Below, piece by piece: positions 14,133 through 60,158 of a DNA stretch of 64,000 bases. Position 1 is the first letter of the stretch, and the number at the start of each line of letters is the position of its first letter. The translations under genes were made by a program, and so were the position numbers. The DNA is from Eledone cirrhosa (Eukaryota), in NCBI GenBank assembly GCA_964016885.1, contig OZ024748.1, positions 58,280,001 to 58,344,000 of the forward strand, given 5' to 3'. Under the pieces are notes generated by a model, which worked only from the letters and a program-made list of their open reading frames with translations, was not told the DNA's origin and ran no database searches.

Positions 14133-14172
14133 AGTTTTACCGGTTGCGCATTTCTAATGCTTTTCAAAAATA
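14133..14172 (-). ncRNA. type I hammerhead, U3-A8 core, GAAA mutated to GCAA
   Basis: ttt TTGAAAA GCAT tagaa ATGC GCAA CCGG TA aaa; about 110 nt of tail lead to (TA)n at 14022. Confidence 0.6.
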
Positions 14173-14845
14173 ATTTTGAGATAGAGCGTCCGCGATGTTT
14201 GCTCTGATCTATATATAACGAAGGAGATGTGGTAAGAAACCAAGTAGATCATAACGCACCAAAGTACTCAGTACTTAGGATAGTATAGTGGGTAATAGGA
14301 ACGAGTAGGTCCTACTCGTTCCTATATATATATATATATATATATATATATATATATATATATATATATATATATATATATATATATATATAGTAGTTTC
14401 TGAATTTGTTTAGCAAGAATCTTTTTGGCAACATGACCCTCCCAAAGTATAACAATATATTGTTTTATATTTATTTATCTTGAATAAATTGTTTCTTATA
14501 AAACAATTATTTTTGTTTTATGCTTCGCGACTGTTGAGCCATCCAATATATTGTTATACTTTGGGAGGGTCATTTTGCCAAAAAGAATCTTGCTAAACAA
14601 ATTCAGAAACTACTATATACATATATATATATATATATATATATATATATATATATATATATATATATATATATATATATATAGGAACGAGTAGGACCTA
14701 CTCGTTCCTATTACCCACTCTACTACCCTAAGTACTGAGTACTTTGGTGCGTTATGGTCTACTTGGTTCCTTACCACATCTCCTTCGTTATAAATAGATC
14801 AGAGCAAACATCACGGACGCTCTATCTCAAAATTATTTTTGAAAA
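14161..14845. repeat. nested ~690 bp imperfect palindrome containing Hydra-PLE tail copies
   Basis: 14161-14322 is the inverse of 14682-14845; 14391-14463 is the inverse of about 14545-14615; (TA)n separates the arms. Confidence 0.9.
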
Positions 14846-15149
14846 ACAATTTATTCAAGATAAATAAATATAAAACAATTTTTTTTTTTTACGTATCGTG
14901 ACTTTTGGGCAATCCAAAACAGAACTCTGATCGATACTGCCCATAGCTAAAGCGAATTATTGTCAATTCAATAACAATTGTCACTCAGTATATTCGCTCC
15001 GCTCGCAGCTCATGCTGTCTACAATACTTACCCACTTAAAATAGAATAATATATCAAGATATAGTAAAATGACTTGACATATATTCGTCTATAATGGATG
15101 TGCAAGAATCTAACACCAAATACTCATACAATAATAATAGTAATTAGAA

Positions 15150-15915
15150 TGATTTCTAGTATTGGCACAGGGCCAGTGATTTGTGTGTGGGGGGGGGGGG
15201 GGAGACATACAGTCGATTAAATCGATCCCAGTACATTACTGGTGCTTTATTTTATCGACCCCCTAAGAATGAAAGACAAAGTTAACTCCAGCGGGATTTG
15301 AACTCAGACCGTAAAGCGGCGTAACTCTATGCTGCAAAGCATGGCGTCCGACCCTCTACCGATACTGCTAATCCCCCACGCTGGTGATAATAATAATAAT
15401 AATAGTTTCTGGTTTAGGCACAAAGCCAGCAATTATTTTCTAAGGGTGATATTCGATTAAATCGACCACCAGTGCATTACTGTTACTTTATTTTATCCAC
15501 CCCGTAAGGATGAAAGGCAAAGCTAAACTCGACGGGATGTGTAGTGAGAACGTAATGGGCCATAACTGTATATTGCAAAACATGGTGTCTGTCGCTCTAC
15601 CGATACTGCCAATCTATCGACCCCAATGCATTACCACTACTTTATTTTATCGATCCCGTATGGATGTAATGCAAAGTTCACATTGGGTGTATTTCAACGC
15701 AGAACGCAAAGGGTCATAACTCTATGCCACAAAGCATGTCGTCCGACGCTCTACCGATATGCTAATCATTCGACCTCAGTGCATTACTGGTACTGTATTT
15801 CATCGACCTCGTAAAGATGAAAGGCAAAGCTATGGTCGGCAGGATTTGAACACAGAAGTTAAAGGGCCTTAACATTATACCGCAAAGCATGTTGTCGGAC
15901 GCTCTACCGATACTA
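15150..15915 (-). mobile_element. cluster of four tandem or partial tRNA-derived SINEs
   Basis: Repeated ttttatcgaccc..taaggatgaaaggcaaag..gggatttgaactcag..ctctaccgatactgc. B box GAGTTCAAATCC lies on the minus strand. The central GCCTTTCATCC..GGTCGATAAAAT..GTACCAG resembles the Deu/Nin SINE domain (from memory). Confidence 0.9.
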
Positions 15916-17584
15916 ATAACTTGATGACTGTCATTTCTAAACGGATATCGATGTTTGGAAAGCGATTAAACGTGTCTTTGAGTAACTGATTTAAAAAACC
16001 TGTCAGAAATATTTATATTTGTTGCGTGATAGCAATTGAGCATATATTAGCTATTAATATTTAATGTTACGAAGCTTATATCAGGCAATTTTCAGCATAT
16101 GGAAGCTGCCAACTAAATTGATTCTTTGCTTGGCATGCCATTAATGTCATTTGATAATGTATTAACCTCTGGACACTATATATTCTATCACCTATATAGC
16201 ATGAGTTACAGCTATTTTAATTAATTAAGTTTCACAATGATACAAAGTCGTTTGTCGGACAGAATGATGCAAGCATGAAATACATTTGTACCTGTTGTTT
16301 TATGACATATCGAACACAATGTCATGAAAGTTAAATCTGAAACTACCCATTATGAATCCTTTATACGCCAAGCTAATTAAGACCATTTTCCCACAATTTC
16401 TACAATGAAGCAAGGCAGAGATATGTTATCTGTCGTGTAGGTAAAACGTAATAAGTTGAAATAAATATGCTCATCATAAAGAAGTTGAAATATTTCATTT
16501 CGAAATTGTTGTTTTAGTGGCCGGGAATTGCATTGAAGTTCAAAAACTATTTCGCTACAGTGATAACATTTGAAATTTCAAATCATCCACTGTATTTTTA
16601 CATGAGCTAGTATTAACTCTTAGATGATTTTTTGTCATTCCACTATTTGGGAAGCGTTATCCATTAAAGCACTATCTATTGTATATATATATGGATGGCA
16701 AATCTATTTGGCCTTTAAACACAGATGTCACATCCCCGAACTATGGAGGGGATTAACCCATCTATTTCTATTATCTATCGGAATTACTGGCTGATAGTGA
16801 CAATATATATATGTAATGTATATATTGAGTGTGTGTAAGTGTGTGTATTCTTAATCATACTTACACAAATCTGTAATCGTTTCGCTTTTACCTGTCTTGT
16901 TGAATCATAATTGTAATACATTAATTTCACGTTCTAAGTATATACTATACTATTGAATATTCATAATTTAACTCTGTACAATAAACTACCAGTAATGTAC
17001 TGAGTAAATGCTGGTCTTGTGCCAAAAGTAGAAACAATTATTTAAATCTGCTTTTCGATACAAATATTATCTCTATATATCAAACATCCAAAGGCACATT
17101 ATATATTCTTTGAAATATAAAACATGCATGTACAATTAAGCAATTTTACACAGCCAGAATACTAGGACATATCACATTAAAATTCAGTTTTATGAATACA
17201 AAATATGATTATTCGTGAACTATTAAAACGTTGAAACCGTGGTAAATTAACCTGAGCGAAACTGGAACCAAAGTTCATTTAAAGTTATATTATCGTTAAG
17301 AAATATGTTATATAGCTTTTTCGTGATTTAACAAAACAGAGAACCTGGAGTGTTAGGACTGGACATATTTTAGATAGAAGCTGTTCGAAGATTGTTGACA
17401 TAATGTTAATACCCACAAGAAAAAGCTTGATACATTTTATCAGCTGCAAGATGTTATCGTATAATCTTCCTCGGCGCTAGATAATCTTACTTTATGCCTA
17501 GTTAGTATTATATCATTCACCATAAATTCACTAATGTACTAACAATATGTCTTTCATTATTCATTTTCGATTTTCGCCCCTTCA

Positions 17585-58760: not shown

Positions 58761-59359
58761 CACGGTCAGTAACACCCCACTTGCCGACTTTGTAATGGGT
58801 AACCCCTGCTTACAAAGGTAGACGTAAGATTTTCTTATATATTTTTTATCGTTTCTTCTATATTTCCTTCTTTCCCCCATCCCTTCCTAGTCCTTCCACC
58901 CCAGTTCTCCTTCTTTGTCGTCGTCCTTTTCACTTTCTCGCCCATCCCGAGGCAGCCCTTAGATCCTTTGTAGCCTCAGTACCCCCACCACATCCCCTAT
59001 TCTATGATAGAATTGGACGACTCCGATTTTTATAGCAGATGTGATAGACCCCAGATACTTGCTTCCTCATCCGATTGCTGCCCCATTTCCGTGCTTTCTA
59101 GATTTCCTAGTGGTATCTCTGCTTTAGTTTCTCGTATATCAATATTTATTTTTTTGGGGGGGTGGGGGTGGGGGTTTTGAGGATTCTGAATTAATTTTTC
59201 GTATTAAATTTTTCATATATATCGTACGAGCATTTATCTAGTTTGTATTAGAATTTATGTATCGTAGCGGCACTCTTATATATCGTATTAGTATTCATTT
59301 TCGGGATTCTGAATTATTATTTGGTATTAGTTTCGGGACTCTGAATTATTAGTTCGTAG

Positions 59360-59547
59360 GGCGGTGGATTGGTAATATCGGTAGAGGGTCGGACGCAATG
59401 CTTTCCAGCATAGTTAAGTCCCTTTACGATCTGAGTTCAAATCCCGCCGAGGTTGACTTTGCTTTTCATCCTTACGGGTCGATTAAATAAATTACTACTA
59501 ATGCACTGAGTAATTGCTGGCCTTGTGCCTAAAGAAGAAACTATTAT
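59360..59547 (+). mobile_element. full-length SINE nested in the PLE 3' UTR
   Basis: Same SINE family; flanked by a TTCGTAG direct repeat (59353-59359, 59548-59554). Confidence 0.92.
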
Positions 59548-60062
59548 TTCGTAGTAGTTTCTTTAGTATTTTGGCCCCCTACATGTTGACCTGTCACTGT
59601 AAGATAGATTTTGACGATTAATACTAACTCATAAAATTCTTCCACTACAATCTCGTATTTAGTATTCCGTCCCACCTATTAAACTTTTCTTTAGTTTATC
59701 AGTACCAGTGAGAGACTTGATAATTGTGGTAGGGGAATAGTAACCAGAAATTGTCTTTTTTTTTATATTTTTAACATTTTTATTATTCTTCTATATATTT
59801 ACTCCATATTGATTTACTTATTGTTTCGACTTCCTCCCCCTCTCCCTCCCTAGTATACTTCTCTTGACCTCTTATCCTTAGGATCCTGCTGTAGTTCGCA
59901 CTATCAACGCACGACAGGGTTTCTCCACTCCCTCTATCCCTTTCTTCTACTGGCAAGTTTAGCTACCCCTTCCTTCCACAAAATGTCATGATAGAATTAT
60001 GTGTCTCAACAACAAACTTTTGACCAATCCTTGTGACAATCACTTTTACCATATATGGAATT

Positions 60063-60158
60063 ACCCACTGAGAAGCTCGGCTATTCATGTACCAGGATAA
60101 ACATTTTCATTTAGTCCAGAATTAGCCGTCGAAACGGCTTGAGCTCAGCCGTCGGGGT
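60063..60158 (+). ncRNA. extended type I hammerhead (core CUGAGAA in this copy)
   Basis: ACCCa CTGAGAA Gc TCGGCTA..TAGCCGTC GAAA CGGCT tgagctc AGCCG TC GGGGT. Confidence 0.7.

Follow-up and report, generated by a model that had tools for sequence, protein, structure and literature searches.

U3-A8 hammerhead motifs in two Penelope-like element lineages of Eledone cirrhosa are a family norm and carry further amplified core changes

The hammerhead motifs described here lie in the pseudo-long terminal repeats (pLTRs) of Penelope-like elements (PLEs) in a 64,000-nucleotide stretch of the Eledone cirrhosa genome (GenBank assembly GCA_964016885.1, contig OZ024748.1, positions 58,280,001 to 58,344,000 of the forward strand), referred to below as the window. 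In most of these motifs the core pair C3-G8 is replaced by U3-A8, and we found that the resulting UUGANAA core is the family norm, and not decay, in two Penelope-like lineages. We think it probable that these pLTR motifs are type I hammerheads that would cleave themselves weakly, possibly with the assistance of a protein, and that are dispensable for the copying of the elements. A U3-A8 pair in PLE hammerheads has already been published and is not new; what remains of interest is that copies with additional core changes were amplified regardless.

The UUGANAA core is the norm in three pLTR families

Three families were distinguished, A being the type found at 19606, B the type at 14133, and C the Hydra-type, and exact patterns were counted in the 3.0-Gb genome. 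The counts are of motif copies and not of insertions, many copies lying in inverted pairs. Family A, with the pattern TGANNA-GCAGAAGAACTGC-GAAACCGG, gave 11,947 exact matches, family B 11,454, and family C 5,337, and the reversed control was 0 in each case, which places the motifs far beyond chance. Among the matches listed for family A, A8 was present in 100 of 100, and only 83 copies had a position 3 other than U (with the preceding T required); all 83 keep A8, and none is C3-G8. The first 100 matches listed for family B have U3 in 100, A8 in 99, and C13 in 97 cases. Copies without A8 numbered 103 in families A and B together; among the matches listed, all 100 have U3 and none is C3-G8. In family C, position 3 is C in 1,431 copies (27%), A8 being otherwise fixed, and 69 copies are without A8, including 7 C3-G8 and 35 U3·G8 (manual count). 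Overall, U3-A8 accounts for >99% of the family A and B copies and ~72% of the family C copies, the mismatch C3·A8 is carried by ~1,418 family C copies, and C3-G8 is nearly absent (7/5,337 in family C). In contigs from run X1 (possibly the run from which the assembly was made), position 3 of family C is C in 24% of depth and position 8 is without change at or above 5%, and in family B positions 3, 8, and 13 are without change at or above 2%.

These counts bear on the proposal that the window copies are decayed CUGANGA members, raised in the original prediction as what would overturn it, or that they are chance matches. Private defects in window copies, such as U16.1A at 19638, would fit this, but it is refuted by exact UUGANAA copies numbering in the tens of thousands, with almost no C3-G8 and with controls at 0, and we give it next to no credence; the family consensus is UUGANAA, not CUGANGA. 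A pattern for a canonical-core relative of families A and B (CUGANGA...CG[A/C]AACCGGU) matched at 3 distinct places, all with an unrelated helix II, and since the reversed controls gave ~140 matches, such patterns are not clean chance tests.

The hammerhead motifs of the three families in the window are as follows.

14135..14170, minus strand: minimal type I hammerhead motif of family B in a Neptune-like pLTR, UUGAAAA core, descriptor match
19606..19643, plus strand: minimal hammerhead motif of family A, UUGAAAA, U3 at 19610; a decayed copy with helix I CCUU/AAGG intact and U16.1 changed to A
35497..35534, minus strand: family A motif, UUGAAAA, U3 at 35530; helix I ACUU/AAGG, 3 bp
37841..37877, plus strand: family A motif, UUGAAAA, U3 at 37844; helix I CCU/AAGG out of register, a subfamily variant
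54009..54102, minus strand: type I hammerhead of family C (Hydra-like), UUGAGAA, U3 at 54097; inverted partner of the 55774 copy
55774..55867, plus strand: family C hammerhead, UUGAGAA, U3 at 55779, GUC site; minimum-energy fold a three-way junction
60063..60158, plus strand: family C hammerhead, CUGAGAA with a C3·A8 mismatch, C3 at 60068; in the 3' pLTR of the open reading frame (ORF) at 56874

A sequence check confirmed that all seven sites cited in the original prediction carry the core ascribed to them, and some of the accompanying details had to be corrected. Family A has three motif copies in the window, none of them fully intact. Each has the UUGAAAA core, but the CCTT/AAGG helix I claimed for all three is found only at 19606, the forms ACTT/AAGG (35497) and CCT/AAGG (37841) being common family A subfamily variants. 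The TA ending claimed for 19606 is wrong; this copy reads GAAA-CCGG-AA, and U16.1 (at 19638) and the cleavage site are lost. In the 14135..14170 motif, U3 lies at 14167, A8 at 14162, G12 at 14147, and C13, normally A, at 14146; helix II is GCAUU/AAUGC, the palindrome ACCGGU is present with A17 at 14138, and helix I consists of UUU/AAA only. The 55774 copy has helix I ACCCC/GGGGU, a long helix II, GAAA, and a stable helix III with a palindromic loop. As had been suspected, it comes from the same insertion as the 54009 copy, the two being inverted arms that are 99.7% identical over 337 nt. The 60063 copy does read CUGAGAA and, as a member of the large C3·A8 class, is not a product of decay.

A family C tail is inserted beside the family B motif, and this composite is duplicated in inverted orientation (14158-14322 and 14684-14848).

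Hammerheads in an evenly spaced genome sample

The share of U3-A8 among hammerheads was determined in 100 stretches of 10 kb (1 Mb), taken at evenly spaced round coordinates that were fixed before inspection, with a descriptor that left positions 3, 8, and 13 free. This gave 28 motifs, of which 18 are U3-A8, 8 are C3-G8, 1 is C3·A8, and 1, probably false, is A3·G8; the reversed sequence gave 0. Eighteen U3-A8 motifs per Mb would scale to roughly 54,000 copies in the genome (Poisson range ~32,000-85,000). When helix II anchors were used in the same sample, again with positions 3, 8, and 13 free, U3-A8 was found in 9/9 motifs of family A, in 8/8 of family B, all with C13, and in 3/4 of family C, the fourth being C3·A8.

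Positions 3 and 8 mostly covary across families: in the examined loci and the sample, at least six families are U-A and at least eight are C-G, with one single C·A match and no U·G family. One compensatory exchange, G-C for U-A, distinguishes helix II of family A from that of family B, and the sequence of loop III differs yet stays palindromic in most families. The covariation is not the strictly compensated double change that had been proposed, as more than a quarter of the family C copies have C at position 3 with A8 fixed in the family.

Loci L150/L014, L157, L180, and L301 represent additional U3-A8 families, which have GUC sites and differ in their loop III, the L150-type motif occurring 6 times among the examined loci. 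C3-G8 hammerheads occur at L305:7540 and 8007 (plus strand) and at L306 4295 and 4778 (minus strand); these repeats are spaced 467 and 483 bp and have identical flanks, which is a non-LTR retrozyme layout.

About two thirds of the sample motifs would escape a CUGANGA descriptor. With Rfam, neither 55740-55882 (family C) nor 37790-37890 (family A) matched a hammerhead model at E ≤ 10, and a scan of the whole window contained no hammerhead among the best 150 of 372 matches, (TA)n matches to microRNA families being dominant. That the motifs would be invisible to CUGANGA descriptors is correct, and Rfam too finds no match for these A and C copies, but they are not unrecognised, since a U3-A8 descriptor was published in 2014 (PMC4209133). 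The window also contains a canonical motif that had been overlooked and that serves as an internal control.

27239..27284, plus strand: canonical C3-G8 hammerhead motif (CUGAUGA) of a further family; weak Rfam match to Hammerhead_3 (E = 0.032, below the gathering score)

This motif has a relative at locus L217:720-770, and no ORF was found 5' of it.

History of the core pair in family C

A tree was computed from 45 family C pLTRs with positions 3 and 8 masked, 23 of them U-A and 22 C·A (C·A copies were deliberately enriched); 13 rows that were truncated, inverted, or contained microsatellites were omitted, and the tree was read unrooted. The C3·A8 and U3-A8 copies interleave. At least 3 changes are forced at position 3, with A8 constant, and a single split is rejected (approximately unbiased test, p-AU 1.9e-6). 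The C·A rows separate two U-A groups, so that under any root one or both of these groups must derive from a C·A ancestor, unless pLTRs recombined. The shortest branches are U-A and include the window copy at 55774 and an element with an intact ORF (locus L303, see below).

Copy ends at the predicted cleavage site

A footprint of cleavage was looked for in copies extending past the cut in the 1-Mb sample and the window (17 of family A, 14 of B, and 51 of C), and no copy in this set has its 5' end within 6 nt of the predicted cut. In family C the copies preferentially start 30-45 nt 5' of the cut, in A and B 60-90 nt 5' of it, and most of these starts coincide with inversions. When all examined loci are taken together, starts at most 4 nt from the cut were found in 4/124 copies of A, 2/83 of B, and 2/158 of C. 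The lack of starts at the cut indicates that templates were either uncut or re-ligated. After the cut there are two preferred 3' end-points per family, at ~+20 and +103 in C and at ~+79 and +145 in A.

Very short family C insertions, often folded back, break off at the base of helix II, 30-45 nt 5' of the cut. They lie in the window at 38342-38447, 38053-38194, 50013-50056, and 14207-14312, and at many sample loci. Run X1 depth over the 3' part of family C is ~20-fold that of the 5' half. This difference in depth suggests a far larger class with only the 3' half of the family C motif.

The motifs could be catalytically dead relics that are kept as a structural signal, for example for binding or pausing of the reverse transcriptase (RT) or for dimerisation, or that hitch-hike, with U-A resulting from AT-biased mutation. 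The window has a G+C content of 29%, the 5' ends and inversions cluster upstream of the cut and not at it, and position 3 changed repeatedly in family C while A8 stayed, all of which would agree with such relics. However, C3-G8 persists in at least 8 families of this AT-rich genome, mismatched states are rare at the family level, and every family examined retains the UGA/GAA frame and G12, the catalytic base, and we regard this explanation as improbable.

Core and predicted folds

In the active hammerhead, G12 and nucleotide 8 have catalytic roles. By anatomy, all three families are type I hammerhead motifs. The cleavage-site triplet is GUA in A and B and GUC in C. The sequence G12-A13-A14-A15.1 is kept in families A and C and violated in B by C13, at a position where the hammerhead consensus given by Perreault et al. 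(2011, PMC3088659) has an invariant A. The GCAA read at 14133 is a true reading and fixed in the family: with a slightly tighter pattern, 157 copies are not C13, split over A, G, and T, and C13 is present in ~98.6% of copies. A register with an inserted base, G12-C-A13-A14, was considered and set aside, because the sister family A aligns base for base.

The 55774 copy is predicted to fold as a three-way junction that is no more stable than shuffled sequences (z -0.17). In family A the predicted fold contains helices I and II, and two copies add an intermolecular ACCGGU duplex, the dimer fold having -22.5 versus -7.5 kcal/mol for the monomer. The predicted probability of a U3-A17 pair in family A is 0.52 in the monomer and 0.58 in the dimer. 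A C3-G17 pair is presumed to be inhibitory (PMC3884650), and by analogy the U3-A17 pair would lower the activity of family A.

One may instead suppose that all motifs are fully active in vivo, that U3-A8, C13, and C3·A8 are tolerated through stabilisation of the active fold by the element's protein or by tertiary contacts, and that cleavage and ligation to circles belong to the life cycle. The covariation of positions 3 and 8 at the family level and the U3-A8 core of the shortest-branch family C clade, which includes the intact-ORF element, would support this, as would the statement that U3-A8 is active in vitro (Perreault et al. 2011, PMC3088659) and the protein assistance known for one PLE (PMC11167929). 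Nearly all family B copies are nevertheless C13, ~1,418 family C copies are C3·A8, and the change A8G, which restores C3-G8, did not expand (7 of 1,431 C3 copies, versus 35 U3·G8). The U3-A17 pairing predicted for family A, analogous to the presumed inhibitory C3-G17 pair (PMC3884650), likewise speaks against full activity, which we therefore consider unlikely.

Host elements

Coding remnants in the window are the following.

18038..18484, plus strand: remnant of a family A GIY-YIG endonuclease, 5' of the 19606 motif (tblastn, 79% identical to the 36199 ORF)
36199..36669, plus strand: C-terminal GIY-YIG endonuclease fragment of family A (Pfam PF01541, E = 4.1e-6)
56874..58709, plus strand: Hydra-like RT and GIY-YIG ORF, truncated at its 5' end and interrupted by a single stop at 58521; an intact relative is present in locus L303

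In families A and B, a GIY-YIG ORF on the same strand precedes the motif by ~1.0-1.4 kb (0.7-1.4 kb over all families). Typical features of minimal PLE hammerheads are thus present, namely a position in the pLTR of an element with RT and GIY-YIG domains and, in A and B, a short palindromic ACCGGU. The translation of 36199..36669 contains a CX4CxxC linker and internal CxxC and His residues; the pLTR at 35497 is inverted relative to the 36199-37877 element. Extended A and B loci gave Pfam matches to RVT_1 and GIY-YIG, with 2/3 of the RT matches below the curated cut-off. Their protein motifs are a C-terminal endonuclease (EN), the CX4CxxC linker, CCHH (CxxC plus two His in the EN), GxKF, and DKG, a locus of this lineage (L296) having KGLKF and DKG. 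On these motifs, on which the clade label rests, A and B appear to be Neptune-like. Their RTs are 58% identical over 363 aa, their ENs ~50%, and their pLTRs 75% over 113 nt through the hammerhead. The 14133 end, for which UUGAAAA and G(C)AA had been read correctly, is consequently not "otherwise unrelated" to family A. With A and B as sister families, the three retroelement ends reduce to two lineages, Neptune-like A plus B and Hydra-like C, and the genome counts bear out that U3-A8 is the norm in both.

For family C, locus L303 contains an intact 786-aa ORF between two U3-A8 pLTRs that are 99.4% identical (a tandem pLTR-ORF-pLTR arrangement). The protein has a CxCX5C linker, DKT, RWR in place of RWK, no CCHH, and CxxC plus CxH around conserved E and N residues; the EN is C-terminal, and the targets are (TA)n. 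Pfam returned no match for the family C protein, and the label Hydra-like likewise rests on motifs and is best taken as a probable assignment.

A second truncated Hydra-like RT/EN fragment lies at 24788-25722 (minus strand), with ~85% protein identity to the 56874 ORF. Degenerate (TA)n arrays, kilobases long, occupy 1500-7000, 19750-22650, and 27320-28650 of the window. An unrelated repeat of ~190 bp is dispersed and locally tandem, at 15213-15917, 29372-30066, 38471-38604, 42753-42947, 59357-59550, 60810-61005, and 62319-62516.

Comparison with known hammerheads

U3-A8 had been described in the Penelope-like Cercyon hammerheads of Schistosoma mansoni, where a new descriptor gave ~1,300 hits (Cervera & De la Peña 2014, PMC4209133), and the assertion that the pair is uncommon in nature is not supported. 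As in our families, the Cercyon motifs are type I hammerheads in pLTRs with U3-A8 (the supplement has UUGAUAAA and UUGAAAAA), occurring mostly in dispersed truncated copies and close inverted pairs with a palindromic helix III region that suits dimers. According to the same paper, dimers of PLE hammerheads have only low activity in vitro. The families described here differ from what is presented for Cercyon in that study in copy number (~27,000 exact-pattern copies in three families versus ~1,300 hits), in U3-A8 being the majority form (18/28 sample motifs), in having no extra base between A9 and G10.1, in the use of A17 by families A and B, and in the GCAA of family B, where the Fig. S3 alignment rows examined have GAAA (one AGAAA).

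The Hydra-clade PLEs of Craig et al. (2021, PMC8557442) share with family C protein motifs, a C-terminal EN, (TA)n targets, and a pLTR hammerhead. Their hammerheads are termed canonical in that paper, whereas the core of family C is U3-A8 or C3·A8, and the family C unit is 3.1 kb compared to "generally <3 kb". The same paper notes the proliferation of Naiad elements, which lack canonical hammerheads (PMC8557442). Natural U3-A8 covariation in several hammerheads is noted by Perreault et al. (2011, PMC3088659), and the variants in section 8 of that article are A6C, A6a, U13a, and U15.1-A16.1, with A13C and C3·A8 not among them. In the literature searched we found no report of a hammerhead family with fixed A13C or C3·A8, although other papers or supplements may hold one.

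The hammerhead of the Anolis Poseidon element PAc cleaves only with protein, and catalytic mutants leave insertion in vitro unaffected (Frangieh et al. 2024, PMC11167929). PAc resembles our families in its pLTR hammerhead, two 3' tail end-points, and no ends at the cut; it differs in having C3-G8 and in vitro assay data. The pair of end-points in each of our families is also reminiscent of the two RT start sites described for PAc.

Interpretation

In the interpretation that we favour, U3-A8 would have replaced C3-G8 and been inherited in the pLTRs of two PLE lineages. The ACCGGU palindrome of families A and B is predicted to stand in for helix III, so that two copies would be needed to pair, and family C is predicted to be able to fold as a monomer. 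When active, U3-A8 would fix nucleotide 8 as C3-G8 does, and a cut after GUA or GUC would trim tandem transcripts. Because selection on catalysis would be loose, master copies with further core defects would still be amplified, such as those with C13 (family B), C3·A8 (part of C), a 3-bp A-U helix I, or a competing U3-A17 pair (A). C13 in family B, the interleaving of C3·A8 and U3-A8, and the missing pile-up of ends at the cut make the cores look relaxed, and abundance is no proof of catalysis. Self-cleavage is probably weak or absent in the hugely copied subfamilies with further core changes. A hidden population of active ribozymes, as envisaged in the original prediction, is not supported, several sequence features arguing for weak or no catalysis.

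Some observations weigh against this interpretation, from different sides. Re-ligation of cut RNA into circles would likewise leave no footprint. G12, A9, A14, A15.1-U16.1, UGA, and the helices are conserved across all families, which suggests that the motif is still under some selection, so that "not needed" may be too strong. Conversely, fold z-scores are weak (-0.17 to -1.93), and the predicted fold of family B is without helix I (3 A-U pairs). When double mutants of a type III hammerhead were scanned comprehensively, activity was restored by the G3-C8 swap alone (Roberts 2023, PMC9901934), and U3-A8 may therefore be nearly inactive.

It is doubtful, but would be of consequence, that family B is an active natural hammerhead (U3, A8, C13, and an A17 site) and that the family C copies with C3·A8 represent a viable intermediate between core pairs, one that is able to amplify. 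If true, the element's own protein would relax the core rules of the hammerhead, and the genome would represent an 11,000-copy natural test of protein-assisted catalysis. The U3-A8 swap alone is one more example, and the value of these families is comparative. One genome contains sister elements distinguished by one core change each (A13 versus C13, and U3-A8 versus C3·A8), all at thousands of copies, and with these natural sequences one can ask whether hammerhead cleavage is required for the transposition of PLEs or whether the motif is a passenger.

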